From NCBI GenBank assembly GCA_973895155.1, contig OZ316892.1, positions 29,766,932 through 29,830,931 of the forward strand: a stretch of DNA of 64,000 bases. The letters are read 5' to 3'. This document shows positions 3,750-28,726 of the stretch, in pieces. The notes below the pieces were generated by a model. The model was not told the origin of the DNA. It ran no database searches and was given only the letters and a program-made list of their open reading frames with translations. This stretch comes from Marsupella aquatica (Eukaryota > Plantae > Marchantiophyta). Within the stretch, counting starts at the first letter, position 1, and the number at the start of each line of letters is the position of its first letter. The translations under genes were made by a program, and so were the position numbers.

Positions 3750-4130
3750 TCGTCCATGCCATGCAAGAATTGTCCGCTTCCCGCTTTCTCCAAGATTTAT
3801 CCAAACTCTACGAAACTGATCTAACTACTCATACGAAAAGCACCCAAGCATATCTATGGGAGGGAGGAAATGAGTTTCCTCTCGGAAGACCCTAGCAATA
3901 TGTATGTTTGAGAGAAGGTCGGCATTAGGAATGCTTGCGAGCATTTTGTTTATGTCATTGATCTCACGGACTGCATATTTCAATAGCGCCCAAAATCGTG
4001 TACCAACAACAAGATGGTTCCATTTCTTTGAGGTGGCTCCAAGACAAATGATTGTTCTCATTCGAGTTAGTCGTTCTTCTGGTAGATTTCCAATATATAC
4101 CTATTGTCCACGGAGTGCAATCGACCTTCC
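3750..4130 (-). pseudogene. Remnant of an F-box-like cargo gene, homologous to 26205-26756
   Basis: MRTIICLGATSKKWNHLVVGTRFWALLK...ETHFLPPIDMLGCFSYE aligns with LKTMVWLGCTSKKWNHLVICTRVWGILR...ETPNLPPIDFLGLFSRY. Confidence 0.75.
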
Positions 4131-7100: not shown

Positions 7101-7824
7101 TTTATTTTTGGTAATTTTTTGTACAACAATGGGCTCACCGCCCTTATCGGGAAAACTGAGCACCTCATCCCCCGGTTTCAAGATAACATTGTGCTTCCTG
7201 AGATAGCCTATAGAAAAAATGAAGAACTTTACGGCTAGACCTTCTAGAACGTAGAACATCTCCTGACTAACAAAATTTTGTCGCTCGCCTATGACCTCTA
7301 CCCGAAGTCTATGTACTACTCTCGACACTATCCCTTTTATGTCGTTGGCGAACTTGCACACTAACGGTTGTAACAATTCCTGCACATCCACCCCAAGACG
7401 TGTCGTCGCCTGCCCACTTATGAAGCAGGTAGTTGCGCCTGTATCCACCAAAGCAACACCCATGTTACCGTTAGAAGTGGCATTGACAAAAATCAGCTTG
7501 TTAGGATCCATTGCCTTAACCTTAGGTACTTTCTCTTGCAACAACACCTTCCCTCTAGCAGGAATGTCCCCTATAGGGACCTTGTCAACAACTAAGGGTT
7601 TGGTTAGAGCGATACTTACCTTAAAGCTCTTCTGGCCCCCTTCTTCACTCGGCTTGCCACCTTTCGTGGGACAATCCTTACTTTGATGGCCCATGACGAC
7701 GCACGTGAAGCACAAGCCTTCTGCCCGCCTCTACTCTGTGAGCGCCTGGTTTTTTGCTTTTTACGCCGTTGAGGATTCTTTCTTAACGTGGTTGGTCTTC
7801 CGGTTGCGCTTCGCTTCTCCATTT

Positions 7825-9666: not shown

Positions 9667-11169
9667 AGTCACGGAACTCGACTCACTACCTTAACACTTA
9701 GCTCCAGCATCGCTGACTTCGACGCCAAGCTCCTTTATGGTCCAGGCCCGGAGAGGCCATCTGGGGAGAACTTAGCATGGGGAGACTTGTGAGCAATGGG
9801 GCGTGGTACTGGCGAAGGCAAGTCGCTAAGCTGGTGGCACACACTAAGGACTTAGACTAGCTGAGGGCTGGTCGGATCAAGGGGAAAGGGCCGGGCTCAA
9901 GGTCAACCGTCTGCACCCCTAGACAGACTTGGAGTTATGAGGGCTTGAGTGAGAGCTCCTCTTGGGCCAAGGCCAATGGAGTTGACTCCATGGGCAACGG
10001 ACGCTTGGGGCACGAGTTATGGCCCGATCCGAGTTCGGCCAATCGGAGGCCCCGGGCGACAATGGGATCTGAGGGCCTAGGCATGAGCACTGGGTTGGCC
10101 CAATCATATCGAGCTAAGGCACTCCGCTTGCGGACGCCTAACTAGAAAGTTATGGGCATAGCTAGTGAGTGGCGCGCCCAGACATGCAGGTTGGGGTCCA
10201 GGTTGGGGTCCAAAAGTATGGGGACCACAAATGGTCCGGGGGTGGTAGGTCTCCAGAAGCATATATGAGGGGAGTGGTGTCTCCCTGGGGGTTAAGAGCG
10301 AGCCAAAGTCGTGGGCCGCGGCGCGCGGTCGCGACACTGAGGGAAAACGTCAAACAGAAATGGTGATAACTTCCCAACGGGAAGTCCGTTGGAGGATTTC
10401 TTGGGTGCGTTGGAAAGCTCTCGAGGAGGACTACATCCTCCTGAGCTCAGCTAGGTCTAGGGGTGCCATAGGTTCTCGGGTTTTGTGGGGGCTATCTCGC
10501 CTGCTTGCCAAATCCTGCCAAAATAGTAGCCAAATCGCGTTCAATCTCTCAAGGGAGCTTGCATTCGGGATGCAAGGCCAAGTAGCCGTGGAGGTTGAGT
10601 TCCAAGGGTACTTGGTCCCTAGACCATCAGTTGGGCGAGAACTGGGAGTTGATTACTAGAGTCAGGGCCCTTCTGGTCCTGGCATGTTGGGACAAGCTTG
10701 GGACAAGCTTTAGGACAAGCTACGCTATTTGGGCCATGAGCATGTCCCGGGGGCAGGGCGGTCAGTTGGTGATGGATAGGTACAGGGGAACCCAGGTTGC
10801 GCCCAAGGAAAGAGTTGTTCTGGACGAACAATGGGCATCGGTTCTGGTTCTGGCTTATGGCATCGGGAGGACCTATTGCTGACCTACTTACCAATGTCTG
10901 TTGAGCTTGAGTTAGGATGCTAGACTTGGGAGATCTAGATCCTAAAGGGTTACTTACCGAGACACTTGGTTGCTTGTGGAGACGGTAATGACCATTGAGT
11001 AGTGGTTGTGCTAGGGAGCGAATGCGGCTTCGTGTGGGGGGAGTCGCGGGTGGTGTTGAGGGCACCAAGTTGCTTGCTCAAGGAGTTCCGTGGAGACGTT
11101 CGGGCACCAGGGGCACTTAGGCATGGATGCTGGGCTTGGTGAGGGCACTGGATGGCTATGTCCACCACT
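9667..11169 (+). mobile_element. Solo LTR (~1.5 kb), AGTCACGG...GTCCACCACT
   Basis: Homologous to 1-1063 and 51742-52812. Termini match the other LTR copies. Flanks gttag/actag could be a decayed 5-bp TSD. Confidence 0.75.
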
Positions 11170-11487
11170 ACTAGCCTCTCTATTCCCAAAGTTAGTGGAT
11201 TGCTGGATATGGGTTTCACAGGGTCTGCTTGTGTTTCTGTAGGTTTCATGCAGACTGTCATAGAATTGTTGACAAATCTAGGGGATGTAGTTTTTGATTG
11301 GACTATGGGTGAAGATTGGAGTTGTTTTTCCAAGGATTACTCTGGGAGACATGTTATTGGGCTAGAAGATCGTTCGGCTTTTGGGGACTCAGCTGCTGAA
11401 GCTGTGAGAGCAGTCCATGGGAGGAAAGTTGTAGTGGAAACCATTTTAGATTTTTTGGATAAAATTAAGGAAAAAGTCAGTGGTTGA
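11170..11487 (+). pseudogene. Degenerate C-terminal fragment of a beta-class N4/N6 DNA methyltransferase-like protein
   Basis: FMQTVIELLTNLGDVVFDWTMGEDW...SGRHVIGLEDR follows the pattern LIxxxTxxGDxVxDxFxGxG...GRxxIGxE (motifs X-I-II). The Gly loop is degraded. Confidence 0.5.
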
Positions 11488-13039
11488 CTTGGGTGATGAA
11501 GAGGAGGACCCGTATGCGATTCTTGGTGATGATGATCTCAGGACTCCATCCCCTTCAAAGGAAGATTCTCAGTAATGATTGTAAGCTTTGTCACTAAATC
11601 TCGACCCTTTTGCATTTATCAACTCTCTCTCCCAAATAGAAATTCCAACATCTGAGTTACTGAGTCTTGCTTCATTTCCACAAGGAAGGGAGTTTAGAAT
11701 GGAAGCAAGAGGAATGATTTAGACTACGTTGGAGAATCAAGAAGGCGCTTCTTGATACTTCTGAAAAGCCTTGGGACCTCCCTGAATATATACAAAAAGG
11801 AATTAAGGATATCGACAAGAGTCCATAGTGACTTGGCAAATGAAGGGACGACGATTGTTGAGGGGATCTGACAGGAAGTTTTCAAGGCATCCTTTGATTG
11901 ATAATGAGGCTGCACGTGCGTCAAGATTTGTAGATGAGAGGCTGAGTAAACATTGAGATCTGAGAGTAGTGAAGTATCAACTAGTGAGGAAAGCACAAAG
12001 AATTCAGTTTCCGATAGTTCAGCTGATGTTCATTCAGGATTAGATGACTTTTGATTGTGTCCATATCTTCCTGATATTTGATTATCCTTGTGGATAAAAA
12101 TCACTTCTAACACAGTGACGGACCAAACGAGAAGTATGACCACCAAATGAGAAGTGTGTTTTCGATTTCGCGAAAAATGGCAAAAAATCACTAAAATTAA
12201 GATCAAAAACGCTATTTTGAGGATGAATCCAAAATCGCATCCAACATCGGATTTCAAATCGAGATACTGTCGACGCAAAAACACAGAATTGTCACAATCC
12301 AGAATTCCGATACACTTCATCTAAAAAAAGTGCAAATTCCAAAACCTGGAAAAACAATGCTTTTCACGTGATCCTTCTAAAAGCTAAATCCGAGCGTCAA
12401 ACAAAATGAGTAAAACACAAGATTTCATTTTCGCCATCAAAATGGCAAACTGAAAATGGGATACGGCGTATCCCATTTTGGATTCAACTATTGAACATGG
12501 ACAAAAACCACACCAAATCATTCTCTTGACGCTTCCATTTAACCTCGGGTTAAAAATGTTTGAATTTTTAACTGCGGTAAAATTGAAAACTGCAAAAAAT
12601 TGACCACGGACTATAGTCGAACCACACAATTAGTTAAGTTAACCCGACGACATGTCCGGAAACTTTTTAGCCCATAACGCATGATGAATACGAGATGGGA
12701 TCCAAGTATCCACTATCGTATTCAACCTCAATATTTTCCACTTGCAACTTTGCATCAGGAGATCTTTCGACATGAATACCAACTGAGATCCATGGATCCC
12801 ATTTTTTTTGCAAGTCCAAAAACTGATTAGGAAAATAGGAGGATGAATACCAGATGGGATCCATGGATCCCATCTAGTATTCAACCTCTACATTTTGAAG
12901 TTTTTGCATCGCATACCTTGATATTCCAGTTTGAAGACCAACTGGGATCCACGGCGACTTCCTCAAAAATCTACAATTTAAATTTCAGCATTCTTTGAAA
13001 AGACAGACTCTCACGTGAAAAAACCCTCATACGGACCAA

Positions 13040-13085
13040 TCAGGGAATGCCACGTGTCCAATGCCCCCGAAAACTATAAAAGGAA
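13040..13085 (+). promoter_or_regulatory. Putative transposase promoter (CCAAT at ~13036, G-box GCCACGTG, TATA box CTATAAAAGG)
   Basis: Motifs lie 150-200 bp upstream of the ATG at 13234. Motif match only. Confidence 0.4.
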
Positions 13086-13233
13086 GAGCTCGCATCTGTT
13101 TTTCATCTTCATTTCTCGCGATTACTTTGAGGTTCGTTAAGTATTGAGTAGTTGTTTTCATAGAATACTGTAATCTGAATTTTCTGTGTTGGATACAAAT
13201 ACGTACTCCTATAGAACCCTTGTTTGATTCTCT

Positions 13234-16200
13234 ATGGCGTCTTCAAGTGATGAGTCAATTTACAGTTCAGATGCATCTTCGCCAGATGTTGTTCAAAAAT
13301 TTATTCCATCTTGTTTGATGAATGAATTACCAGCCTCACAGAGAGTAGTGCCAGAGATTTCATTTTCCTCAGAATCTGAGAAATCAGAGTCTGATTCAGA
13401 GTCTTGTAGGAGTGTTGTGGGTGCTCCGATTTCATATTATGTCTCTCCAAGTAAACCTCTTAAACGACGTCTACTTGTAAAGAAGCCTAATGTAGTTCCT
13501 ACGATAGAGACACTTGGTTCACCGCAAACCCTGACAGATCTTCAAAGGTGAAGGCCTCGGTTTTTAATGCCAAGAACAACGTTACCATGTAGGCCCGCCC
13601 GAAGATCTATGTTGGTTTTTCCAATGTCTCGTTCTCCGGGAGTGAAGATAGCTGTGTCCAGTGTTCAATCACAGTTTGAGCGAATGAGGAGTCCAAATGT
13701 GCCGGAATTGCAGGGAGGGGCAGCCTCAGAGCCAAATTTGGTGGGTCGAATACCAAGTGGGATCCCTACTCGAATGTTGAGAAATGGTGAACGCGAATTA
13801 CCTATTTCGTCTCCTTCAGTACCAAATTCCTTGGGTCAAATACAAAGTGGGATCCATGGATCCCACTTAGTATTCCCTCGTGTTATTTTGCAGAATCCTG
13901 TGCCCGAGTCACCGGTCTTACGGACTTCCAACCCGAGTTCCGATGGTGGAATGCGAAATGGGATACGCAGATCCCAATTCGTATTGCGCAACGGAAAATT
14001 ACCAAGTCATGATGCAGAACAGCAAGTGGGAAAGTTTTCACTTTGAAGTCCCGAAGGATGAATACGAGTTGGGATCCATGGATCCCAATCGGTATTCCCA
14101 TCAATTATTTCACAGAGTGGTAAAACTAACAATATGGGACTTCGAAGCCCTTTGGCGAGGATGTAGTGTGAGGTTTTTGGATCTTCCATTGGACGGCAAG
14201 TGCAGAACAAAAGAGGGAAGAGATCTAGTGTCCAAAAAATTCCTCGGAGATTATTGCGAAGTGAGCTGCCGGAGAGAGGGCCCGAAAATTCAAGGGTACA
14301 TGCTAAATTGAAACTTGTCCAAAGATTTTTCAATGGTCAAGATGAGCCCTCAAGTCGAGAAGAATCACCTAGGCTGGGATTACAGTCTCAGAGACAAGTG
14401 GGCGGTACTCCGACTGAAGATGTGAATATCATTAGAAGATTTCAAACTAGAAATCTCCGAACACCTATTACATTTTCAAAAGACTCTGAAGAGAGATCAG
14501 AGGAGGCTGCAAATGACAGAGAAACTGCTGTAATTTCAAATGTTGTTGAAGAGATCCTGGGAGGTGAGATTGTTCATGAAACAGTTACAGAAAATGTGGA
14601 GAGTGGAAACAACTCTACAGAAAATCTTTTTGTTTTAAATTCTAATTCACTAGAAAATAGTGGGGGGGGTAAGTTCTCCCGACACTATTCAGGATAGAGT
14701 AGAGGTGACAAGACCTAGCAAGAAAATCAGAGATCAGATGATTAGAAAAGATAGATTTACCATTGAAAATCTAAAAAAACGCAAAATTAAAGATATTTTT
14801 AAGTATCCCTGTTGTGACAAGTTTTGCTTGAGGTCTCTCGGTCTAGAGGAATGCTCAAAACAACGCAAGTATTATTTTGGTCTTAAACACTTGCAAAAAA
14901 ATATTTTGCTACGAGGTTGTATCGTGAACAACTGTAGTACTTCTCGTTGATATAGTGTAAATGGACAACCTATATGTAGAGGAGGATTCAAGAAACTATA
15001 TTCTTTAGGTAATAATAGATTGGCAACAATCCATGCAAACATGTTTACAAGGATTGAACGAGATACCTTTTGTAAGGAAGACTCACCTTCATTTCTAAAC
15101 TTGGTGGAATGGTTGAAAGATTTTTTGCAAAAAAATATGGATTGTCTTCCCCATAAAGAGATTCATCACTTGCCAGACAATTGGACAAAGCAAGAGATAC
15201 ATGGAATCTTTGAAGCTGAAACAATGTTGCGAGAAGAACAACAAGTTACATATTCTTATTTTTTGCGTGTTTGGAAAAAAAAGTTTCCAAATGTACAAAT
15301 TCCTAAAAGGAGTCGATTTTCTACTTGTGGTCCTTGTACTGAATTCAAGGCTCTTCGGGACAAAGCAACAACTGAAGAGGATAAAAGTAAGTTCCACTAA
15401 CTATAACCTTCAACTTTAATTTGATGACATGTAATTCAATATTTGTCAAAGTTTATCCTTAGTTATTGATTTTTAATTCATTGCTATTGTATCATTTCAG
15501 GAAAGTATAGCAATGCCCTTATGGAGCATCAAAAAGTACAATCATTGGAAATGATGAAGTTAGCCAAGCATCGTAAAAAATGCTATGATGAGCCCAACAA
15601 GTATTTGGGTATTTGTATAGATGGTATGGATCAAAAGAAAATAGAGCTACCACATTTTATTCGTTGTCCAAAGAACATGGATGAAAAGTATTTCATTCCA
15701 ATACATGTTGTAGGTTGTCTCATCTTCAACAGGAACCTTGTAGCAAAAGTATTTTTGACATATTCCAATATCCATAATGATGCAAACTTGACCATACATG
15801 TTATTCAAAATGTATTGAATACATGGGATGGGACATTACCAAGAGTGTTATATCTTCAATTAGATAATACCACTCGGGAAAACAAGAATAAATTCTTGAT
15901 GACTTATCTTCACACGTTAGTAGATTTGAAGATTTTTGACAAGATTAAAGTGGGTTTCTTGTTGGTCGGTCATACACATGACCAGATAGATCAGATGTTA
16001 GTAAATTTTTGTCTAGGTTAAACAAGCACAAAGCATTTCGCTTGGAGACTCTTGAGGATATTATTCGACGAGCATATTCACCTGAAGCTTTGATCATATT
16101 TGTGGATGAAGTAGTCGATTTTCAAAAATTTGTCAATGAAAACGACCAGCCAAATGAGAAGGGAGTCTCAGGTAGAGTCTTGAGAGATCTCAATCTCATA

Positions 16201-17100
16201 ACTTTTCAAAGGCAATTCAGATTCAAACGAGTCATGGAGGATGGAAACGAAGAGACAACATTTCACGGGAAACATCTTTCCACGACCCAGGATTGGGGAG
16301 ATGCAGTGACGTTCGTCAATTACATTCCAACTTCAAGAATGTGGGTTGCTGCACAAATGTCACTGAAATCAGCAAAAGGTGTTGAGAGGGATGATGTCCA
16401 TGATTCTTCCAATACAGATGGTGCATTAACTACTCTGGTGAAATATGAAAAAGCTATCCAGGAAGGTTTCAATTACTTTGACAATGAAGATAAACTTTGG
16501 TGGATGAGTTTTTTTGAGAAACAAAAAGATATTATCAAAAACCACCTAGAGGAAGGTGAGTGGTTATTTGAGTGGGTTTGGCCGCAACAAAATCAAGGTG
16601 CACAACTACTTCCAAGGGTGAGAAATGAACTTGTTGAAGAAGGTGTTGATCCAACTTTGGTTGACAAAGTTGTTGGACCACAGAGAATTATGTACTCCGG
16701 ACCTCGACGAAAGCAAGCTGAATTTGGAGATTTCAGAGATATGGAAGTTAACAATAAGTGGTCCATGATATGTGTAGCGGCACACAAGGATCCAGAAGGC
16801 AAGTTGTTTTGGATGGCAAAGGTGTCAAAGATTTTGACAAGAACTGCAGACATTCCTGAGAGAATCAAAATCACATGGTACACAACTGAGGCAAGTGCTA
16901 AGTCTGCTATTGATGGGAAATATTTTCCAGAGAAAGATAATATATCTAATCGACTTCTCAAAGATGAACTAGTTCTATCATCAACAGCAGTGTATGCATA
17001 CAACTTTGCGCTTTTAAGTACTAATCAAATAGCAGCCAAAACTAAAAAAATTATAGAGTCTGCTATATTAGAGAGAGGTTCTGCACACTCAGAGGATTGA
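13234..17100 (+). pseudogene. Sola-like DDD transposase (DUF7869-type) with one intron (15387-15500); disrupted
   Basis: Cys motifs CCDKFC, ICRGGFKKLYSLG and FSTCGPC. Catalytic-type motifs ICIDGMDQ, LYLQLDNTTRENKN and FLLVGHTHDQIDQ. A phase-1 GT-AG intron joins the frames (..EEDK-R-KYSNALM..). In-frame TGA stops at 13549, 14044, 14059 and 14948. Frameshifts at ~14670 (G run) and ~15999. Confidence 0.85.
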
Positions 17101-17111
17101 GATTGATGTCC

Positions 17112-18023
17112 TTAAACAGGTACATGCATCAATTTTAGAATTTGATCTCGAATGAATTTTCTAAGGTTACATGCTCTTTTACAATTGTACCATTTTTCAG
17201 TAAGTAAAGACTGTGCATCAAGGCATTGTATAATATGCCATTGAATTCTGATTTCGTCCATATTTTGAAGAACAAATAGACCACAATCTGAATTGTTTGG
17301 TTGTTGAGGTACCTGAGAAAGAATCTTAAAGTTAGTCCAAAGTGTTTAATAATTGAACTAAATAAAAGTTGAAATAACTTTTCAAATCCTTACCATTGGA
17401 TTGTATATCTCCACAACTCCCATTGGAACTTTTCCAAAAAATAATTCTCATTTCATTGTAAAATATCTGTAAATTATCATTCAAAGTTATTAGTCCAAAG
17501 TGTTTATATTTATGTACCACATAAATAAATTCAAATTGAAAAAATGTAATAGAATATATACGTACCTGCTAAGTATTGATCCAATTACATGGGTTGAGTG
17601 TAGACCGGCGAGAGAGTCTAGATGATACATTTTGATCAAAGATTCAATCCGATCCAAACATATTACAACCAGACTCCAGTGCATGCTCATGTGAATTGGC
17701 ATGAGAATGACCTCAATTTGGGAAAATGGTGGCTTGTAATAATTCCGCATCTTTTGAATTGATTCCAACAGGGTCTCAACTGGTTCTATTTCAATCCTTG
17801 AAACAAGCCAAGGGTAAAAAAAAGAGGATAATGTGTTTACTGAGGGAGCCAGATCTCCATGTTCCTCGGTTATTAATTGTGGGTAAAATTACATTATTTC
17901 ATCACCCAAATATTGACCGGGTTCAAGTTGGCTCAATATTTTATTGTCCAAAAAAAATCCACTAGAAGGATTGTGTGAGAATTTATGCAGAACATGTTTC
18001 AATACAAAATCCTCCTTTGGTTC
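17112..18023 (-). pseudogene. Ulp1/C48 SUMO-protease domain; exons 18023-17566, 17466-17394, 17312-17112
   Basis: Spliced translation LSQLEPGQYLGDEIM*FY...LSSFFY...ILMPIHMSMHWSLVVI...YHLDSL...NPM|VPQQPNNSDCGLFVL. The His-Asp-Gln/Cys catalytic set is present. Canonical GT-AG introns in compatible phase. Three premature stops. Confidence 0.88.
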
Positions 18024-18135
18024 CTGCAAAGACATTACTTTGTGAAATAAGAACATAGTCCAATCATAATCTTCCTCAATATTTCACAAGTTTGGATCAA
18101 TAGATACAACATGAGAGAACTAATCAAACTTAAGT

Positions 18136-19263
18136 CTACACCTCAAGGAATGAGCCAAGATCAAGTGCCGGAGCTTCATGTTCCACTTCATCCTCATCAT
18201 TGTCGTTCTCCTCCGCAGTTGTAATAATGCAAGTTCCAGTGGTGAGGGTGCTCGTAGTACCACCAATAGGTGGTTGAACCTCAAAGCTCATGGGTCCTGT
18301 ACCCTCCTCGGTTGCTTCATCATTCAAGTCCCACGATTCATCAAGCGTGACAAATCGGGTCCGGATACAATCCACCTGGCTTGCACTGAGCTCCACGGCT
18401 GTCACCGGACGTTTCCCTAACAAGGCAACGCATGAGGTCAAACCACTCCCCGCACATAAATCAGCAACCCAATCCCCTACTTCACTAAAATGTTGAACGA
18501 ACCAATCTGCTAAAGCTATCGGTTTCTGGTAAGGGTTCACTATTTCTCCCAATGGTGTTACACATTTCTTTGTAACACAAGGGACTTTTATGATGTTTAC
18601 CCTTTTCTCATCATGTTCAAAATTGTACATGTCTCTGGTCCTAATACCACTCTCGTGATAATATCCGATTGACCAGTTTTCAAAAGCCCAAGCCAATCGA
18701 TTCCCGGAAGGATGAGCATATACATTTGGCTTCTCCCAAATTCCAGCCTCTACACCTGCGTTACAAGTTTTTCCAAGAGCATTCATCACAGACCAAGTTT
18801 GCTGCAAAGAGTGAATCACAACAAACCTCCACATCTTTGAACTTGTCAACTTGGCAAAACAATTCACCATATCCACAATATCACTCTCTGAAAATGGGAC
18901 CTCATCATTTTCAGAGCCAGACGCATTGAATCCATAAGGAATGTCTGCAATTGCAAGTGTGTAATTCCTTTTCTCTACAAACTTATCCAGCGCCATGACA
19001 TCTCCACAATGCAATGTATATCTGATAAAATTTCCGTCAGTGTTTTTCCATCGATGGTCACTCGACTCTGCTTCAACCGTTTCAATCCCACGATGACGGT
19101 TGTAGTTCTCAATCGCTTCTTGAACATAATTCTTAAACCCCGGGGGAATAACACTCGAAGTCAACTCCTCCGTAGGCTTCTCAACCGCATCGGCACCAAT
19201 TGCATCCTTGTTCTTCTTCTTCAAAAAAGCTTTCAACTGCAAACGCAAACTTGTTAAAAGAAT
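18136..19263 (-). CDS. Beta-class N4-cytosine/N6-adenine DNA methyltransferase domain (exon 2 of the cargo fusion gene; this exon is uninterrupted)
   Basis: TLHCGDVM, LAIADIPY (motif IV, DPPY-like), IWEKPN, NPYQKPIALADWFVQHFSEVGDWVADLCAGSG (motifs X-I), KRPVTAVEL (motif II). Order IV...X-I-II is beta class. Confidence 0.9.
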   Translation of the reverse strand: MLLTSLRLQLKAFLKKKNKDAIGADAVEKPTEELTSSVIPPGFKNYVQEAIENYNRHRGIETVEAESSDHRWKNTDGNFIRYTLHCGDVMALDKFVEKRNYTLAIADIPYGFNASGSENDEVPFSESDIVDMVNCFAKLTSSKMWRFVVIHSLQQTWSVMNALGKTCNAGVEAGIWEKPNVYAHPSGNRLAWAFENWSIGYYHESGIRTRDMYNFEHDEKRVNIIKVPCVTKKCVTPLGEIVNPYQKPIALADWFVQHFSEVGDWVADLCAGSGLTSCVALLGKRPVTAVELSASQVDCIRTRFVTLDESWDLNDEATEEGTGPMSFEVQPPIGGTTSTLTTGTCIITTAEENDNDEDEVEHEAPALDLGSFLEV

Positions 19264-19802
19264 CTGGAGGAAAGACAATGGGGAGATAACCATTTAGGAA
19301 TTCATACAATCAAATCTGGACGACGAATGCGACATGGGATACTCCGTATCCTAGTTCGTATTCAACCAAGCAAAAACCACAGTCAAACATCACCACCGTC
19401 AAATAACCACAAGTGAATCCGAGATGGGATACCCCGTATCCCACTTCGCATTCGACCAAGCAAAAACCACATTGAAACATCTCAAACGTCAAATAACCAC
19501 ATTGAATATGAGATGGGATACCGCGTATCCCACTTCAAATTCAACCAAGCAAAAACCACATTGAGACATCACAAACTTCAAATAACCACAAGTGAATACG
19601 AGATGGGATACCGCGTATCCCACTTGGCATTCAACCAAGAAAAAACCGCATTGAAACATCACCAACATCAAATAAGCACAAGTGAATCCGAGATGGGATA
19701 CCCCGTATCCCACTTCGCATTCCAACAAGAAATCCATGAAGAAAACCTCCAAACATGGCGAAACAAATAGAAAAGTCCAATCAGTGGAAGGGGAGAACAT
19801 AC
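19264..19802 (-). repeat. 539-bp intron filled with five ~90-bp units, each carrying the palindrome GAAT.CGA.ATGGGATAC-NNN-GTATCCCA.TTCG.ATTC
   Basis: Donor GTATGT at 19802 and acceptor TTTCCTCCAG at 19264, both phase 0. Palindromes start at ~19325, 19415, 19504, 19594 and 19684. Confidence 0.85.
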
Positions 19803-21760
19803 CACATCGGACAATTTCCCACTCCATCTTTCAAGCTCGGCAGATTCTGTTTCTTTCGAAAACATTTGTTTGCAAGTCGCCCAGTCTTTCTGCCCTGACA
19901 ACTGAACAAAAAGCTTGCTGATTTTCACAAGTTTCTTGTAACTCTCGGCTTCTTTTGCCATCTGCTCCAAAGAGATCATCCGGTCCTTCACTCGGAGAAG
20001 AAGGGACTCCAAAAATCGGTCATGTTCAATTCCCTAGATTGCTCTCCAAGGTGTCAAGGTAAGGCCCCCTGCAAGCTTATTCAAAGCTTTTGGAATCGAC
20101 TGCGCTTTTCCCTTTCCTTTCTTGAGTTTCTTGATCGGTGACTTCTGCTTATTCTGCCCTTTGATCTCCAACTTGTTCCACATCTCAAAGATCTGGTCTT
20201 GGAGTTTCCAGACCTTACCCGACATAAACGCAATTTGGAAGAGAGGCTCATGCTTCTTCAGGCTTGTGGCGTCCCCCAGAAAAAACCCGTCGAGGCAAAC
20301 CTCCATCGCACACGCTTCTCTAGTCTTCTTGGTTTTTGCCATTCCTCTGGCAATAAAAATCTTATGCATTGTTCGGATTTGATCAATGTTGTTCATTTTT
20401 TTCCTGTACTCCTGATCAATATTATGTTGGATGCTAAGTTTCTGAATGTCCTCCCTTGTGAGACCAGCATACACCCAAGCTTGGAGTTCATTGAAGATCT
20501 CTCTCCCATAAGCCTGATACAATTCTCTCTTGGCCCGTGATTACCTCCAATCACTCGATATCTCCAGCTTGCTGCCTTTTCTGGGTCCCAGTCTGTCATT
20601 GACGGGCAGTCTTCCGGCATCACAAACAAGACAAATGGCGTCGTGAAATTTGTCGGATTCATTTTCATCAAAGTCTTGATGTTCTCCACATGCAACCGAT
20701 CGACTGTTCGAACCAATGTTGAGTTCTCGTTGTCAATATCGTCAACAAGAAGTAGGTTAGTTGTTTTCAGAATAACTGTTGTCTTCTGAACTCGCTTAGT
20801 CTCCATCAACCAAGACACTTCTTCACGAACCACAAGTGTCTCTTCCCACTGCAAAGTTGTGGTGATATCTGTTGAATCATTTTTTTTCTTTAACAGCTCC
20901 TCTAGATGATAAAGAAAACCCACCTGACAAAGTTGAAGGAATCTGAGGTGTCTGTGAAATTGGTGGGACCAAAGATGAGACAACACATGCACACTTCCTG
21001 GTGCAGAAGGCGCGCGCTTCTGGATGTCACATCGATCCAATTTCTTCTTGACAATAGCTTCTCCTGACACCGCTACTTTAGAACCTTCCCCAGAGAGTTG
21101 ATCTGCAAGCTTCCTCTTTGCCGGTTCCTTAAAAGAAACTGTGGCAGATTTCTCCTTTGTCGAGGGTGTTCCAGACATCTCCCCTGACTTCGAAGCCGGA
21201 TTGGTAGGCTTCGTCACTTTCAACTTCAAAGGCCGTTCTTTGACGCCAAAGTCGGCTCCAACAACGGACCTATATGCTACCTTCGTAAAATCCTCAACAA
21301 CCCTCCAAGACTTCAAGACAAATTTCAAACACCAATAAGAAAAGTCCTCAATCTTCGGCACTTCCCAAATTAGTTGGCAGATCGGGTCATCAGGAAATGT
21401 GTTCATCGAGACCCGATCAATTTTCTCGTAGTTGAGGACAACTATAGTGAAGGCATTGTTCGGAAGAATGCAAAGGTACATTGGAATCTTCTTCAGCTAT
21501 TTTGTTTTTGAGTCGGTGATATCCGCCTCCCCGGTGTCCATGACTAATCCATAATGGCAATGGTCTTTACCCTTAACGATAACCAACCACACCGCTGGAC
21601 CTTCATACGCTCTGTGAATATCCATCGCCCGAGCATCCCTGAAGTACCACCTATTCCTCACGAGTTTCTCCTCCGTGTAAAGGTCTTTCTTCCAAATCTC
21701 ATCGACGATGGATGTCCGTGAAGACTGGGTCGAACCAGACGACTTTGATTTATTCGACAT
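19803..21760 (-). pseudogene. Exon 1 of the cargo gene: unknown N-terminal domain + ParB/Srx-like domain + helical region
   Basis: ORFs 21497-21823 and 20393-21481 are in frame across a TAG. A frameshift at ~20530 leads to 20034-20522, which is in frame with 19668-20012 across a second TAG. ParB-like signature VRTVDRLHVENIKTLM...PFVLFV...YRVIGGNH...AKRELY...AWVYAGLT...LSIQHN. Confidence 0.72.
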
Positions 21761-21859
21761 GATCCTGAAAAAGATTGACACACTTAGAACCAGACCAAAC
21801 CACTTGGCATCCAACATCAACAATTGCTAAGTCTGACGCAAAGAACAAAAAAGAGGGAG

Positions 21860-22155
21860 TTGAATGCGAAATGGGATACGCGGTATCCCACTTCGCATCC
21901 AACAACAACAAATGTCCAGAGTTTGATGCAATTAACGAAAAAGAGGGACTTGAATGCGAAATGGGATACGCGGTATCCCACTTCACATCCAACCTCAACA
22001 ATTGCCTCGAGTCTGATGCAAAGCACGAAAAAGAGGGAGTTGAATGAGAGATGGGATACGCGGTATCCCATCTCGTATTCAATATTGAAAAGAAGGCCAA
22101 ATAATAGAGTTGAATACAAACGGGGATACGGCGTATCCCTCTCAGGATTCAACAA
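21860..22155. repeat. Four copies of the ~40-bp GGGATAC-NNN-GTATCCC palindrome (spacing 90, 90, 70 bp) upstream of the cargo gene
   Basis: Copies at ~21861, 21951, 22041 and 22111, read directly. Confidence 0.9.
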
Positions 22156-23276
22156 TTAACCAAACGAGGAGGGGAGAGTTTCTTCAGGTTTTACCTATTT
22201 TTGGTTTTGATTCGAGCAAATACAAAAAGCTATAGAGATGTTGCGGCCCGAGAAAAACGCGGAGGCAAACAAAGTTGTAGCAAGGTGATAAAGAGATAAA
22301 TGACTATTTACTCCTTAACAACTCGATTTCATTCCCGTTAGGAGTGGATAAGATCGAAAAGACCTAATTAACACAATTTGAGAAGTTTACACCAACATTC
22401 TTAGGTTGGAGAGATTTCTAATGATCTCATTAACATAAGTGTTTAACCACAAACTCAAGTGGGTAATCCTTAGGATTCACAGTGCAATAATAAAGACTAG
22501 AATTAATAAAGATTGAAACTAGAGAGAGAGTAGATAGGAGTTTTCAAAGTGCAAGGGAATTGAATTTCTGACCATCACCACTCCTTCAATAAGGATTATG
22601 GCCTAATTTAAGATTCAGAAATCAACATTTTCTATGCTTTTTGATTTCTCGTAGCAACTCTTCTCCATCTCTTGAATTTAGAAGACAACAATGTAAATCA
22701 ACCCGGGACACTTTTCTGGTCTTGCTTAAGACAGTACTAGGATACTCGAATTGGTTTACTTCTCCTACAATCCTTAAGATTGCTTGTTTGAGTGTTGTGC
22801 AAATGTCAATTTTCTCTTTGGTGAATCTTCCAAATGTATTGATCACAAATCTCATTGATCTTTCAATATCATTAAGGCACACTCTAGCATTCATTGAACA
22901 CTTCACAACAACTCAGGGGTTGCTAAAACTTCTTCCTTTTACTCAACCATGGTAAAAAGAAGGGAAGAAAAGACATAGATTTCTCCAAAATCAAAATGGG
23001 GAAATCAAATGTATCTCTCTCCTCTCGGTTGACTTTGGGTCCTCCTCCTTTTGTACTAAAAGTGGAGATTATGAAAAGACATGCCTTTTCAAAACCCAAG
23101 TCTAAAGAAGTATGTAAATAAAAGTAAACTACCCTAGTAAAAAAAATAGAGTAGAGACTCCAATGGGTATATCAACAAAATGCTGGAGTCTACTTACTCA
23201 TATACTAGTCTACATAGCCATTTCTAGGTCTAAACTAATGTGGCTCTAACTCTCTAAGTATAACTCTATTCAGGTC

Positions 23277-25099
23277 CTATCTTCTGGGAAGGAACCTCCT
23301 CAGGGTTAGCCATAGCAAGGGGTCTGGTCGAAGGTAAACTCCTTGCTGGCCAGTGGTAAAAGGGATGGACGGGTCAATATCCATGTTCTCCTGATGGGTA
23401 CTTGGGTCATGAGAATAAGTGTAAGAATGAGAATGGAAGTGGGTACTGGGAGTGGGGAAACCAGGAGGGTTGATGGGTGATGAGGGGCCAGTGGAATAGA
23501 CTCCTGCATGAGGACTAGGAGAGAAAGATCTGGTAGTAAAGGGAGGAATCTCAGTATCAGCTAATAGCTTCTCAGTAGTCAAGTCACTCATCTCCCTTAA
23601 GGCTTCACAGGTCTTTGAGAGGCCTGTAAGTGCATCATCCACCTTGGCACTCACATCTACCACTAAATGGTTAATCTTGGAGAAAAGGATGGGTGTGGTG
23701 TTCTTGGTCAAATACTCATCATAAATCTGGGCCTTAAGAAGATCCAGAGAAGCTATCTTAGTCAAAGGTTCAACCAGATCCAAAGATTGAGTGATACTGA
23801 GTTGGAGAGTATGCTCAAGCTCATTCTTCTTCTTACTCCTTTCCAACTGCTGTTTGAGTTCAGATACCTTCTTTTTGAGGAACTCATTCTCCTTCAGTCC
23901 AACTTCCTCTTATCTGTGGTATCACTCATGGTGGAGATCTTCTCAAGAATCTGCCCTGGTTTCACTCCTAACTTTTGAGAAATGTCAGTGATGGCCTTCT
24001 CCATCACAGTGGTCTTCCTCTTCACCTTCTGGAATGTGTCTGAGATGATCTGGAAATCAGCTAGGGTGTCTAGGGAGGCATGGCCGGGTGCATCCGGAAA
24101 TTCAGCCGGGTCGACGAAGGCCGGGTCGGAAAAGTCCAGGTCGAGGTTTCGGGCAGCAGACCGGGTCTTTCGAGGATTTGTCTCTGCTGGCTCCTCATCC
24201 TCACTGTCATCAGAGGTGGCCTGGGTGATATCTGGATCTGTCTCTCCATACTTTATGAAGTTGAACTTGGCCAATAGTAATTTCTTCTCCTCTCTGAACA
24301 AAACTCCTTCAAAGCTATATAGATGTACCAGGTAGTAGGAGAGGGGAGTAGGACTCTTGTTGGATAGGTTCTGTACCAACTTCCTTATCAAATCAAAGAT
24401 AAGCTTAGCCCAGTTGACTTTTCTTTCTCCCTTGTAAGCAGCAACAATGGTAGAGCCAACTCCAACAGTAACTCTTCTTGGCTTCTCAGGGTACAGCAGG
24501 GATAGCAGAAAGCTGAAGACTCGTCTCAGATCAGGATCCAAACACTTAGAAACATTGAACCCGTCCTTACTGTTGATGGCTCCTTTGAAGTAAGGGAGGA
24601 TTAGATTGACAGCTCTCCCCACTGGACCTTCTCCTTCATCTTCCAATACAAAAGCTCCTGCAATCATCATCTGAGTCCATCGCTCAGGTCGGCCTCTGGA
24701 GGTATCCTTAAACTCAGCCGGATACTCCTTGGATCGGATCTCTCTGATCATATCTTCGCTCTGATAACTCCAGGGTAGCTCCATCAGAGACTCACAGCCC
24801 ATCCTGAGCAAAGACTCCCTCAGTTTGACCTTCTCAGCTTCGCTGTCCGGAATAGCTGGCCTCAGAAGTTTCATGGCAATAGGGACCTCCTTTCTCTTCG
24901 ATCGTCTCACAGGGGCTTTAACCAGAGTAGGTGCAGGTGATGTTGAGGTTGAATGCCCCTTAGAGACGCGAGAAGTGGACATTCCGGCTGGATCCGCCCC
25001 TTTCTCCATAGGATTTCTGGAAGCAGAAAATTGATTTCTCGTAAATTTTCTGCCTCCTCTACGGCAAGCTCTACAATGGTGCGACTTCAGAATGTTCAA
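23277..25099 (-). pseudogene. Unknown ~590-aa TE-associated protein (globular domain, coiled coil, Pro/Ser-rich tail); one frameshift at ~23897
   Basis: The 401-aa ORF 23894-25099 continues after a shift as LKENEFLKKKVSELKQQLERSKKK into 23277-23846. It loosely resembles accessory ORFs of plant mobile elements (recall, not searched). Confidence 0.6.
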
Positions 25100-26204
25100 T
25101 CTCTTCGATTTTGACCACTAGTAGAAATGTCCGGGTCGACCTGGCCGCAACATTTCTGATCAACTGAAAATCGTTTTGGAAGAATTGCATCAAGATTTTG
25201 TCAACCACAATGCAGGGTCATCTAACGTGGGGAAAATCTGGACTCAATCGGGCCTAAAATAGTGATGTCCGGGTCGACCTGGCCTCCCTTCTCACAACCG
25301 ATGTATCCACGATCAGGGTCTCAAACTTCCTGCCTTCACTTCCAGCGGTGGAGTAGGCATTCCCCTCACAACGAATCAGTCAGTACCCTCATATCCAAGC
25401 TCTCATCATACAATGCAAGATTGGTCCTATAATCCGGACCCAAGATCCTCTACCAAAAGGGGAGAGCCTCCTCACTCTACTACTTAAACAGCCTAATGCG
25501 CTCGGGAGCTCAAAACCTACTAAGTTCGGCTTTGAGAGGTGTGAGAGGCCGGATCGACTCTCCTTCCTTATATCCGGATTCTGCTGTGGTCGTGCCTGTG
25601 TTTGACTTATGGTTTTAAAAACTTTGGCAATGCACAACTGTTATTCAGTAGAGTCACTTTGTAAGCTTCCTTATCTCATTATGGTTTATAGTAAAAAGTT
25701 TCGGGTCGATCCTCCTTCTCTAATATCAATCCGGGTAGGCCTCAGCTGGGCTTGAAAGTCTCATAACACGTCAAAGTAGTCTTCAGGTACCTCTTTAGCC
25801 TCATTTGAGATCTTGAACTTAAAAATTCTAAAATTTATGGTTAGTTAACCCTTCTTTCATAAACATCCTTATCTCACAAAAGTTGAGAAGAAAAAGAAAT
25901 GAGAGTAATTTTTCTGACCAGACACTTCTATTTATACTTTATCACCTTTGTATCCACAGGCGATAAGGTTTCCACAGGCGATAATGTGTATCCAAAAGCG
26001 TAGGGTTGGAGTCTGGATGTCTGTATATTTTTTTCTCTTGATGGGACAAGAGATAAGGCATATCCCCAAGTCCTTGTATTCAACCAAATAGATTTTACGC
26101 GTAGCGAATCGGGTAACTCTTTATTCATTCGGAATTGTGCCACAAAAAAAACTAAGTTGATATTCTTAAAAAGAGTCTTTACAAAGAGCCCATTCAAGAT
26201 GGCT

Positions 26205-26756
26205 CTAAACCAGACTAGAAGCTTCCCCATACATTTCCAAGAGCCTCGCTTGCTCATCTTTCTCAAGATTGTGCCAGTCTTCTTGAAATCGATTTAGGTC
26301 ATACCTTGAAAATAAACCTAAGAAATCGATTGGAGGAAGATTCGGTGTTTCCATCCTAACAAAAGCTTCAATATGAACATTCTGAAGGGGTTTTCCATCG
26401 GGAATGCTTGTCAGCATTTCATTTACTTCCTCAAGCTGGCTTTTTGCTAGTCTAAGAATACCCCAGACTCGTGTACAAATTACGAGGTGGTTCCATTTTT
26501 TGGAGGTGCATCCAAGCCACACCATGGTTTTTAATCGCATCAATCTTTCATCAGCTTGGTTCTTGGAGGAATCAAACTCATCCTCTGTACAACAAACTTT
26601 CAAAATGGGCCAAATGAACGTTTCAACAATCTCGTCAAGAAGTCCATCCAAAAGCAATCCAGATTCCCTTTGGCCACTTTTTTGTTGAATTTGTTTCTTC
26701 TCTTTGTCGAATGACATCGCTAACCTTGTAAAGACAGGGTTCTCAGTGACTGCCAT
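26205..26756 (-). CDS. 183-aa F-box-like cargo protein
   Basis: LLDGLLDEIVETFIWPIL...LGCTSKKWNHLV resembles an F-box with an insert (LxxLPxEIxxxIxxxL...VCKxWxxL). A homologue is retained in the 2.5-kb element. Confidence 0.6.
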   Translation of the reverse strand: MAVTENPVFTRLAMSFDKEKKQIQQKSGQRESGLLLDGLLDEIVETFIWPILKVCCTEDEFDSSKNQADERLMRLKTMVWLGCTSKKWNHLVICTRVWGILRLAKSQLEEVNEMLTSIPDGKPLQNVHIEAFVRMETPNLPPIDFLGLFSRYDLNRFQEDWHNLEKDEQARLLEMYGEASSLV

Positions 26757-26991
26757 TCCAAAATAAGAGTGGATACCTGGAGTAATAAATGAGATGGTGA
26801 GCTCTTTCTCAGCAACCTACAAAATAGTGATGGAAAAACTGATTTTATTTCTTTGATCAAAATAAAAATATATTCACAAAATATTTGACCCAAGAACGTT
26901 CACCTAAACACTTACACACTACTCAGAAAATTCAACGCGATAAGTTAACCCAAGGATCTTCGTTCCAAATCCGACAACAAAAATATGCCAA

Positions 26992-27370
26992 TCAATGATA
27001 TTTGTTTTGGGCATCACGACAATAGTTACAAGAAGAATTAACAGAGTGCAGACAACCACTCAAACATATCCTCGACCGAATCGGAACTCCATCCTCATTT
27101 TTTTCACAAAACTCTATTCGGAGTGGATTCAAACTATCATGTGGATCCACGCCTCCGGTCCATAGCGCGCCTAATCCAGGACAAAGAACTTTGAGTGCAA
27201 CTAATTGCTTATACAATCGACGAGCACGTTTCTCAAGGTTTTGATTCTGGACCGCCATGAGACTCACAAGAGAAAACTTCGTTTATCAAGGAAAGCTTAA
27301 GCTTGAGTGGGTGTCGGTCATTGAAAGGCAGCAAGAGCTTCAGTGCGTATAGTTCAGTTGAACTTCGCCT
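26992..27370 (-). CDS. Small Cys/His-rich cargo ORF of unknown function (possibly spliced or decayed)
   Basis: ORF 26992-27267 ends in CLSGCLHSVNSSCNYC. Candidate acceptor TTTTGCAG near 27369. Confidence 0.3.
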
Positions 27371-27459
27371 GCAAAACAATCAGTAATCCATAAGGTTTTC
27401 CCATCATTCAAATAAACTCTAGGTAAATACCACATGGGCAATCAAAACTGGACATTTGA

Positions 27460-28035
27460 AGAGTGAATCCCAAACGGGATACGCCGTATCCCATTTCGCA
27501 TTCAACGTTGAGGTTTTGACATTTGGAGTCTACGATACTTCATATTCGGAGGTTGGATGCGACATGGGATACCCCGTATCCCATTTTGCATCCAACCTCC
27601 TTTTTTAGCTAATGTGAAACAAAAACTTGAAATTTGAGGGTTGAATCCCAAACGGGATACGCCATATCCCATTTGGGATTCGTCCTCGCCATTTTTAGGA
27701 AGATTCTCACCTATTCGTCAAAACTGATTTTTGGGGAATACGAGTTTTTATAGACGGTGTGCATTCGTCGAGACTAAGAGTATACAGAGCGAGAAAAAAT
27801 GAGCGTAAAATTCTCAAGAGGTGATCTCCTATTTATAGTTTTCTCACTGACCGTGGTTAGCTAGTATTTGACTGCAGTTGCATCGCAGTCGGTTAAATGT
27901 TACTGTTGAGAAGAATCATTTTGGAATATTCTTGTCGGGTAAACCAATATCAGCACTTTTACCGCATTTTTTTTTGGAATTCCGCGGTTGGATCCGAAAT
28001 GGGATACGCCGTATCCCATCTTCGTATTCGTGTCG
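27460..28035. repeat. Right subterminal copies of the GGGATAC-NNN-GTATCCC palindrome
   Basis: Copies at ~27465, 27553, 27641 (~88-bp period) and 27989. Confidence 0.9.
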
Positions 28036-28726
28036 ATTTTTCCCATTTTTTCAATTCAAAAAACTAGTTTTTAGTGGGAATACTAATTCCGTATCCAAGA
28101 CTTTTTTGCCTTAGAAACTTTTTTCGCCGCGGGCAAAACGAGAAGTGTGGTCACACTTCTCGTTTGGTCCGTCACCGTGTTTTCTTAAAAGAGTTAAACT
28201 TTCTAGGCATTTGTTCATGGCAAAAGGTTTATGTATTATCTCAAGTGATCTCAATAAAATGTTATGGATTCTTTTTGGTTTATAATTGATCGGGTTTTAT
28301 ATATGATAGAACAATTTTTGCTAGCAACTCTTAGGATAGATTGAAATACTACATTTTCTTTTTTACTCCCAAATTCTGATGTGAAATGTGACCTCCAACT
28401 TTGCTAGCAATGACTCTACCTCGCTAGCAATATCAGTTTTTCCTATCTCCTTTGAACTCCTTTTTACTAACATTGTTAAAACTCCCGTATTTTCAGAATA
28501 ATAAATTCTCCCCCCTATATTTCCACTCTTAAGACCAAATTAACACTAATTCATATGCGCAAAATTAATTAGTGTTATAATAGAATTAGTGTGAGTGACA
28601 CTCATTCCCTGGGCCCTCACTCCGTGTAAAAGAAGTGGACCCCCTACGATCGGGCCCTCTTCCTATTTACCCCTTGTCATTCCATTTTACAATAAAAAGT
28701 TCTCTTATTACCAGTAATAATTATAA

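Follow-up and report, generated by a model that had tools for sequence, protein, structure and literature searches.

Architecture of the element

The window, a 64,000-nucleotide stretch of the Marsupella aquatica genome (contig OZ316892.1, positions 29,766,932–29,830,931), contains a DNA transposon at positions 12109–28181 that encodes a Sola1-like transposase on one strand and, on the other, a Ulp1 protease, a predicted ParB-methylase and a 203-aa ORF. The left terminal inverted repeat (TIR; AACAC..., 12109–12143, + strand) and the right TIR (28147–28181, − strand) are identical at 33 of 35 bases, and the target-site duplication (TSD) TTCT is present on both sides (12105–12108 and 28182–28185). 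These boundaries had been proposed from the sequence alone and were borne out by contig data. Contigs leave the window exactly at base 12109 in each of four runs (14 in X1, 20 in X2, 25 in X4 and 21 in X6) and the flanks beyond this base are unlike each other (agreement of 0.40–0.44 in the same runs). Thus, the left end is independently fixed by 14–25 breaking contigs per run, while at the right end single-copy flank contigs begin at 28182–28188. The element is real and multi-copy, with repeated independent insertions. Contig coverage indicates that the interior of the element is only moderately repeated.

The original prediction described a 16-kb element, which is correct as to its ends but not as to its basic length. 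Contigs from four of four runs examined jump over a 3,603-bp segment (22276–25878; joint 22270 to 25879), indicating that this segment lies outside the basic element. It is a nested, solo-LTR-like insertion of the TG...CA type that bears a separate 5-bp duplication, AAAGT, and because other copies lack it, the core element is 12,470 bp. A coiled-coil ORF that had been assigned to the element was lost from it by the same data, as the ORFs concerned (23277–25117) sit inside the insertion. The window copy is defective: the transposase, the ParB part and Ulp1 are disrupted by stops and frameshifts, and the methylase exon is its sole open coding part.

A Sola1-like transposase and variable cargo

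The transposase gene (13234–17100, + strand) was delineated from Pfam, aspartate motifs and contigs; it is spliced, with an intron at about 15387–15500, and its 5′ part is approximate. In the window copy it is interrupted by a premature stop at 14948–14950, where other copies have G at 14948, and by a frameshift near 15998. The Pfam match to DUF7869 is strong (E = 3.9e-34) and the three aspartate motifs (IDGMDQ, QLDN and GHTHDQID) are intact and conserved across an alignment of 16 transposase sequences, in agreement with the predicted Sola-like DDD transposase. A 4-bp TSD is typical of Sola1 and is found here (TTCT) as well as at a related element at 2476–5001 (AACC). We compared two stretches of the published Sola1 HMM (positions 5–30 and 82–107 of 124) with the protein by eye; the second motif, DncagqNkN, agrees with DNttrENKN, and the first, fDlqk..lP, agrees only loosely with IDGMDQK..LP. 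The published Sola2 motifs (DFSENY, SDG..QYKN and FATSHGK..CDG) were not matched by the window transposase, as judged by eye. KDZ/Zisupton elements, which carry a KDZ transposase and create 8-bp TSDs, were also rejected, given the absence of a KDZ match in Pfam, the strong DUF7869 score and the 4-bp TSD.

The spliced Ulp1/C48 protease gene (17113–18023, − strand, ends approximate) retains His-Asp-Cys motifs, has one in-frame stop and was confirmed by Pfam (PF02902, E = 2e-10). Ulp1 was not found between the methylase and the transposase in the three of three relatives that span this position (loci L001, L003 and L004). The 203-aa ORF (26205–26816, − strand) had been called F-box-like by eye, a label for which neither Pfam nor PDB gave support. 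A paralogue with 45% identity is present in the related element at 2476–5001, and a small Cys-rich ORF (26992–27260, − strand) is possibly an upstream exon of the same gene. We regard Ulp1 and the 203-aa ORF as additional cargo that varies.

A beta-class methylase under purifying selection

The open exon at 18136–19236 (− strand) encodes a beta-class amino-methyltransferase with the motif IV sequence DIPY and the motif I sequence DLCAGSG. Motif IV precedes motif I, and the Rossmann fold is like those of M.RsrI, M.MboIIA and CcrM. The profile match to PF01555 exceeds the Pfam gathering score (E = 1.7e-6) and fold searches returned CcrM, M1.HpyAVI, N4CMT, M.MboIIA and M.RsrI (E values of 3e-12 to 1e-9), which together place the protein among the N4-C/N6-A methylases, as anticipated. 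Its nearest prokaryotic relatives are phage methylases of about 25% identity, many annotated as adenine-specific.

Could the methylase be a one-off capture or nested insertion in a single copy? The window copy is indeed broken and does hold one nested insertion. However, coverage of the methylase bins matches that of the transposase bins in all four runs, and the methylase is convergent with the transposase in three of five related loci (L001, L003 and L004), the other two stopping short of that position. This linkage in diverged relatives, together with the selection described below, already contradicts a one-off capture, whose probability we regard as negligible, and the earlier view of the methylase as an integral gene stands. 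In 15 pairwise comparisons pN was 0.06–0.32 and pS 0.48–0.84, and dN/dS was 0.04–0.08 in the four unsaturated pairs. Strong purifying selection thus acts on the exon. With 58–62% identity between the window copy and its relatives, the methylase ranks first in conservation among the regions measured, ahead of the ParB N-terminal domain (53–54%), the C-terminal part of the transposase (46–48%), the helical region (42–45%) and the N-terminal domain (21–24%).

To characterize motif IV, 180 homologues were examined, of which 114 had an aligned motif. It starts with D in 109 of these and with S in only one, and SPPY occurs in none of the 114. As DPPY is typical of N6A enzymes and SPPY of N4C enzymes, the DIPY motif and the absence of SPPY among these homologues make N6-methyladenine (6mA) the likelier product, although a motif IV starting with D does not strictly exclude N4-methylcytosine (4mC). 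The same residues bear on a proposed tie to liverwort 4mC methylases, in which the element's enzyme would write 4mC and would have given rise to Marchantia DN4MT1 or be closely related to it. MpDN4MT1a/b and bdelloid N4CMT are likewise eukaryotic beta-class enzymes of prokaryotic origin, N4CMT is among our fold matches and family members are present in the liverwort Riccia. By contrast, MpDN4MT1a/b and N4CMT are host genes with SPPY and demonstrated 4mC; as far as the sections consulted describe them, DN4MT1 (TSPPY) carries no extra domains and N4CMT carries a chromodomain (bioRxiv 10.1101/2021.02.12.428880, PMC8885841). The Marsupella methylase is transposon-borne, reads D-x-P-Y and is part of a ParB fusion. 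On these grounds of motif and architecture the DN4MT1 link is unsupported and, in our estimation, very unlikely, which removes a false lead toward the Marchantia sperm 4mC enzymes.

DIPY is not the canonical DPPY, so that activity of the methylase is not guaranteed. The domain might instead be a weak or catalytically dead DNA-binding module, a VANC-like, sequence-specific binder that brings in or keeps out host factors and leaves no mark. Consistent with this, motif IV is DIPY or DVPY in the close clade and decays to DLPR, DFPC and DIPH in some distant homologues, and the methylases of DIRS elements are thought to be inactive. Yet nearly all close homologues retain the SAM-binding motif as well as the catalytic Asp and Tyr, and no region measured is more conserved (dN/dS under 0.1). 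We therefore consider a dead module unlikely.

A predicted ParB-methylase gene

The methylase exon is likely joined to ParB-like coding sequence in one gene of ~985 aa on the strand opposite the transposase. The apparent methylase ATG at 19293 falls within a predicted GT...AG intron (19237–19802, − strand; GT at 19802, AG at 19237) that holds five 90-bp repeats; in relatives this position is likewise occupied by an intron containing short repeats. Beyond it lies a predicted exon (19803–20902, − strand), identified by a homologue model and a profile, for a ParB/Srx-like N-terminal domain with a GGNH motif and a helical ParB-like region; in the window copy this exon has a frameshift near 20535 and a stop at 20034–20036. 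The predicted first coding exon (21005–21760, − strand, 3′ end approximate, stop at 21497–21499) would encode a fast-evolving N-terminal domain, which may be a PWWP/Tudor-like chromatin reader (a weak lead), and a low-complexity linker. Unbroken ParB-methylase fusions occur among the homologues (for example P0043, P0081 and P0031).

The fold of the ParB-like domain was modelled on the L003 homologue (pLDDT 81) rather than on the broken window copy. The top 11 Foldseek matches of this model were all ParB or Noc (E values of 1e-5 to 8e-4), its comparison with PadC gave Z = 10.2 and an rmsd of 3.0 for 99 aligned residues, and an HTH_ParB profile matched under the cut-off (E = 8e-4). The model thus supports the predicted ParB-like domain, with a ParB/Srx fold at the N-terminus and a helical region after it, as in ParB/Noc clamps. 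The canonical CTPase arginine patch of ParB is GxxRxxA; the homologues read GGNH or GGGH followed by G, S or T where ParB has Arg (GGNH-G/S/T-xxA), and this missing second arginine makes CTP clamp behaviour doubtful.

Family-specific palindromes

A feature overlooked in the original prediction is an element-specific palindrome, GGGATAC-N3-GTATCCC or GGGATCC-N2-GGATCCC. The 12,470-bp core has 20 copies of it, and there are none in the 3,603-bp nested insertion or in the 47,927 bp of the window outside the element. Seven copies lie at 12440–14100 (four in the left arm and three in the transposase gene, within its poorly resolved 5′ part) and four in the right arm (27440–28030). The other nine lie within the ParB-methylase gene or a short way upstream, 6–8 kb from either end; each 90-bp repeat of the intron has one, and an array of four (21800–22150) lies upstream of the start codon. 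Relatives have palindrome arrays in the corresponding intron, of different sequence. A second palindrome is found in L001, L002, L004 and L005, a third in L003 and a fourth in the related element at 2476–5001, and the first three, when cross-tested, were mutually exclusive between families. These differences follow the tree, so co-evolution is not demonstrated. The specificity-type region of the methylase is conserved across families whose palindromes differ, so recognition of the palindrome cannot rest with the methylase alone.

ParB recognises parS and Noc recognises NBS. By analogy, a dimer of the ParB-like region would recognise the two-fold symmetric palindromes, and the methylase tethered to it would then deposit 6mA along the element or close by. 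Either this mark or the protein itself, once bound, might keep cognate copies transcribable or transposition-competent in the face of 5mC silencing by the host, much as in VANDAL/VANC. Self-marking is plausible, and it gains support from the element-specific palindromes.

The transposase could equally be the palindrome reader. Transposases commonly bind subterminal repeats, and the palindromes might serve it in synapsis or self-activation while the ParB-methylase acts separately on some other short target. This would accommodate the 8 of 20 palindromes that lie in the two arms and the related element at 2476–5001, which is non-autonomous and lacks a ParB gene yet has 13 palindromes. However, that element may be served in trans, and the nine copies far from the ends and the similar intron arrays of relatives speak against transposase sites. 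Moreover, red algal inverted-repeat arrays adjoin ParB-containing genes that travel with different transposases. Overall, we judge a transposase-only role for the palindromes to be improbable.

Self-marking could also act as a brake, whereby the transposase is repressed, or the ends are blocked, by the mark or the bound protein, so that copy number and harm to the host stay limited. Methylation of ends can block transposase binding, bdelloid 4mC has been linked to transposon silencing and the element interior is only moderately repeated. Against this, family-specific motif arrays in non-coding DNA resemble those of the anti-silencing VANDAL/VANC system and 6mA tends to accompany active transcription in the systems reviewed, and we think a brake quite unlikely.

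We favour, with moderate confidence, the reading that the locus holds one broken member of a multi-copy family of Sola1-like cut-and-paste elements of 12.5 kb with, opposite the transposase, a likely single spliced ParB-methylase gene whose product likely binds the element's own palindromes and would methylate element DNA, probably at N6-A. A broader proposal is tentative: that Sola1-like elements of charophytes, liverworts, lycophytes, ferns and Ginkgo possess a private "parS plus writer" system, in which a ParB dimer would read the family palindrome, a PWWP-like domain would read chromatin and an active methylase would place 6mA on cognate copies only.

Comparison with known systems

The combination had been thought undescribed in Sola-like elements, but Sola1-1_Ec32 of the brown alga Ectocarpus (2025) has the same design, a ParB-like and methylase accessory gene, with a self-binding and self-modifying hypothesis (PMC12477816). 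Both belong to the Sola1 superfamily, with 4-bp TSDs, termini that start with AAC and nested insertions, and in both, likened by description, a ParB-like and N4C/N6A methyltransferase gene lies on the opposite strand (1104 aa in Ectocarpus, about 985 here). The best Repbase match of the Ectocarpus transposase is the moss element Sola1-1_PPa (PMC12477816). By contrast, the algal element is 21.5 kb with 282-bp imperfect TIRs and the plant element 12.5 kb with 35-bp TIRs, and Ulp1, the 203-aa ORF and family-specific palindromes go unmentioned in the portions of the Ectocarpus report consulted. With homologues in Riccia, Adiantum, Diphasiastrum, Ginkgo and Chara, the Sola1 ParB-methylase design extends from a brown alga to plants.

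The Plavaka accessory genes PAG2 and PAG3 of red algae also provide a transposon-borne PF01555 methylase and ParB-like domain, with tandem inverted-repeat arrays proposed as ParB sites (bioRxiv 10.1101/2025.02.11.637652). They differ in accompanying an EnSpm/Plavaka transposase and in being two separate genes, methylase-SET and ParB-2OG oxygenase, rather than one predicted gene. Arabidopsis VANDAL/VANC shares with our element an accessory gene and arrays of short family-specific motifs, often tandem, in introns and intergenic DNA (PMC5735166), and such arrays do lie in non-coding parts of the Marsupella element. The likeness is one of working and not of homology, as VANDALs have a MULE transposase and the 9-mer bound by VANC, which removes 5mC, is not palindromic. 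ParB-linked amino-methylases of a phage ParB-terminase locus have been described as ancestral to several eukaryotic clades; the part of that report consulted includes no land-plant clade of the ParB-methylase kind (PMC4738411). Our nearest prokaryotic matches, one of them annotated as ParB-like, share about 25% identity over the methylase domain, and no phage record covers the ParB part of either of the two queries.

VANDALs have been described as the sole transposons for which sequence-specific modification of their own chromatin has been demonstrated (bioRxiv 10.1101/2025.02.11.637652). Self-modification by ParB-methylase accessory genes had been proposed in algae, and plants are now added, with a catalytic motif under strong selection. 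If active, the methylase would be a defined enzymatic source of a bacterial-type mark in plant DNA. Should the "parS plus writer" proposal hold, land plants would have a source of DNA 6mA that is encoded by transposons. The mark would be an enzymatic one that counters silencing and evolves separately in each family, and plant epigenome engineering would gain a programmable mark that is not native. As the candidate binding sites differ between families, cognate and non-cognate binding and methylation can be compared directly, and such tests are feasible in tractable moss or liverwort systems.

The element is a multi-copy Sola1-like transposon

The element at 12109–28181 is a genuine multi-copy Sola1-like transposon; its ParB-methylase accessory gene is under selection, and its palindromes are specific to the family. 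Its 35-bp TIRs (12109–12143 and 28147–28181) are identical at 33 of 35 bases and have a TTCT duplication on each side. Copies were studied through contigs of public sequencing runs, seven of which contain part of the stretch and four about half of the sampled words. Contigs exit the window exactly at 12109 into unlike flanks in runs X1, X2, X4 and X6 (n = 14, 20, 25 and 21, respectively, counts that also take in right ends and derivatives), supporting the TIR-bounded element of the original prediction. In X1, the depth is 14 for contigs with the exact sequence of the two flanks and 214–298 for single interior contigs, a contrast consistent with tens of similar copies, depth not being copy number. 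Three runs each contain a contig that leads from the left flank, through one TTCT, to sequence sharing 18 of 30 bases with the right flank (ungapped count by hand), which hints at a paralogous empty site. Two complete TSD pairs were seen, each of them inside the window. An alternative, Transib/RAG-like end at CACAGTG was rejected: no duplication fits it, and the contig breaks fall at 12109 instead. The CpG and CHG ratios showed no distinct signal. The inner part of the right TIR contains a hairpin with 14-bp arms, ACGAGAAGTGTG-GT-CACACTTCTCGT (28136–28165), whose word recurs as a direct repeat at the left end; the element at 2476–5001 has a similar layout.

The transposase core matches DUF7869 in Pfam (E = 3.9e-34) and contains three aspartate motifs that are conserved among homologues and intact in the window, as expected of the Sola-like DDD transposase originally proposed. 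The window copy has one premature stop, open in other copies, and one frameshift. Among 420 longer homologues the closest stand at 71–75%, followed by Adiantum (60%) and Riccia (at most 59%), with Chara, Ginkgo and marine invertebrates further out. Taken with a chalcone-synthase-type gene elsewhere in the window, these homologues point to a seed-free land plant as the probable host. The motifs are unlike the Sola2 alignment in the accessible part of PMC3627910; compared by eye with the Sola1 HMM in the available portion of PMC5751038, the second motif agrees and the first does so loosely. The accessible parts of the Majorek paper (PMC3985635) and its supplement held no usable Sola alignment, and the sole PDB match of the transposase profile was RFX5 at E = 2.1.

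In all four runs compared, contigs jump from 22270 to 25879, skipping a 3,603-bp nested insertion (22276–25878) that begins with TG and ends with CA, is flanked by a 5-bp duplication (AAAGT) and lacks terminal repeats. Because run contigs skip this insertion, the basic element measures 12,470 bp. The "coiled-coil" ORFs (~620 codons, frameshifted, no Pfam match) sit inside it and so can no longer be counted as cargo of the element. The insertion is covered more deeply than the surrounding element and may be a solo LTR of unusual length that contains an ORF.

The predicted accessory gene combines ParB-like and methylase regions

The methylase exon matches PF01555 over the cut-off. Modelled at a mean pLDDT of 66.6, it resembles beta-class enzymes (E = 3e-12 to 1e-9), in agreement with the amino-methyltransferase class assigned to it. 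Motif IV (DIPY) precedes motif I. Predicted splice sites at 19802 and 19237 would link this exon in frame to upstream exons, giving a predicted protein of ~985 aa. A sequence search of the PDB with the ParB region gave no matches, so a fold search was required. The top 11 Foldseek matches of a model (pLDDT 81) of the upstream region from L003, a metagenome contig encoding a relative, were all ParB/Noc, and the model superimposes on PadC with Z = 10.2 and an rmsd of 3.0 over 99 residues; the predicted ParB-like domain is thus upheld through a homologue. The N-terminal domain has no Pfam match and gives only a PWWP lead (Atlas score 0.84).

The methylase is the most conserved of the regions measured and is under strong selection (dN/dS 0.04–0.08 for the unsaturated pairs, 4 of 15). 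According to the accessible text of PMC8885841, N6A enzymes typically have DPPY and N4C enzymes SPPY. Among the 114 aligned homologues (of 180), motif IV begins with D in 109 and reads SPPY in none, and a writer of 4mC resembling DN4MT1, the Marchantia 4mC enzymes, is very unlikely. A dead methylase, with the protein acting as a binder, would accord with the non-canonical DIPY, which also counts against self-marking; with the selection on the methylase speaking against it, we consider this reading unlikely. Phage methylases are the nearest prokaryotic relatives (~25% identity).

Three relatives pair the methylase with a convergent transposase

Relatives are encoded on 5 of 165 metagenome stretches. 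The upstream helical exon is present in every one of them and the ParB part in three; the end of a convergent transposase is reached in three, with no Ulp1 between. A one-off capture of the methylase is hardly credible beside these pairings. Two further methylase/transposase pairs, on contigs matching in size and source (6,091 ENA; 8,915 JGI), support linkage indirectly. A profile search returned 192 proteins at E ≤ 1e-10, and named sources among 30 proteins checked from the two homologue searches were Chara (3), Ginkgo (1), Riccia (2), Adiantum (4 clusters), Diphasiastrum (1) and Cymbomonas (1). Multiplicity is what suggests transposon linkage in these named species; no adjacent methylase–transposase pair occurs in incomplete lists of locus tags from Riccia, Adiantum, Chara and Ginkgo. 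The Chara protein P0031 (GBG86584.1) is a 1,825-aa model in which one ParB-methylase unit follows another, probably through the merging of two neighbouring copies.

None of 78 pattern matches in viral contigs encodes a relative. Alignment A1 yielded no longer forms among 7,989 candidates, yet the profile search did find fused forms, and the A1 result is therefore weak evidence. In a quick-method methylase tree (73 of 181 rows, those covering 165 or more of the 232 core columns), the window groups within a clade of 29 rows (support 99) that leaves out the rows of Riccia, Adiantum, Ginkgo and Chara; built without DN4MT1, N4CMT or phage rows, the tree is silent on origin.

The original prediction took this combination to be undescribed in Sola-like elements, which a published case contradicts. 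As described in the accessible sections of PMC12477816, Sola1-1_Ec32 is 21.5 kb long, with a 4-bp TSD and termini AACCG...CGGTT, and carries on the opposite strand a 1104-aa accessory gene with ParB-like and N4C/N6A methylase parts; its transposase best matches the moss Sola1-1_PPa, and its authors' self-modification proposal is the same as that for the window element. Plavaka elements of red algae carry one gene with PF01555 and another with ParB, together with arrays of inverted repeats (available portion of bioRxiv 10.1101/2025.02.11.637652). Further comparison drew on accessible parts of the Marchantia preprint, PMC4738411, PMC12344493, PMC12973397, PMC4455052 and PMC9033089. No land-plant ParB-methylase transposon was found in the titles, abstracts and partial texts searched. 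Elements of this kind were described only recently, with a proposed function, and judged by sequence would now extend to plants. Iyer 2011 is reportedly the reference for green algal cases.

Element-specific palindromes and a proposed self-marking mechanism

A two-fold symmetric motif, GGGATAC-N3-GTATCCC or GGGATCC-N2-GGATCCC, occurs in 20 copies in the element core. The left and right arms contain four each; of the other twelve, three fall in the 5′ part of the transposase gene, five within the intron that precedes the methylase exon and four upstream of the ParB-methylase gene. The nested insertion and the other 47,927 bp of the window have none; because the motif was defined on the element, this absence elsewhere is the informative part. 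The metagenome contigs L001, L002, L004 and L005 contain GAGCGAGAC-N2-GTCTCGCTC in 5–15 copies, and L003 a third motif in 11 copies. Such family-specific arrays resemble those of VANDAL/VANC, where family-specific motifs are arrayed within introns and intergenic DNA (accessible part of PMC5735166).

The element unites a selected, transposon-linked ParB-methylase gene with element-specific symmetric sites. A ParB-like dimer may bind the palindromes, the methylase would then mark DNA nearby, probably with 6mA, and the mark could favour expression or mobility of cognate copies. We give this whole chain, drawn from sequence and models, an even chance of being right. Besides DIPY, the ParB motif without its usual arginine counts against it, as do motif differences between families that are confounded with the tree. 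A further point against it is the transposase as an alternative reader of the palindromes; taken as a rival explanation, transposase-bound palindromes are likewise unlikely. Self-repression by the accessory protein is also improbable. The self-marking chain remains our preferred reading.

A second element and other features of the window

A 2,526-bp non-autonomous relative (2476–5001; related TIRs AACACGATTTCGGACC..., TSD AACC) is inserted in a Gypsy integrase, whose interrupted frame is in register if the duplication is 4 bp (or 1 bp). It has its own, fourth motif, the palindrome CGATAAATTTATCG, in 13 copies with none outside the element. Its segment 3753–4088 is a paralogue (45% identical) of the 203-aa ORF at 26205–26816, which has neither a Pfam nor a credible PDB match to support the earlier "F-box-like" reading. 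A decayed Gypsy gag-protease-RT-RNase H (5439–7730, minus strand) runs on into the interrupted integrase.

In the left-flank repeat, a decayed fragment (11143–11484, plus strand) matches N6_N4_Mtase under the cut-off (E = 0.006) and is unmatched by the element's own methylase family; it may signal a different repeat that carries a methylase-like ORF, or be a chance match. An unbroken 401-aa chalcone/stilbene-synthase-type ORF lies at 32724–33929 (minus strand). A local duplication (40487–47532 and 52820–60467; 75–84% identity) has one U-box ORF per copy (41862–42413 and 54293–54844).
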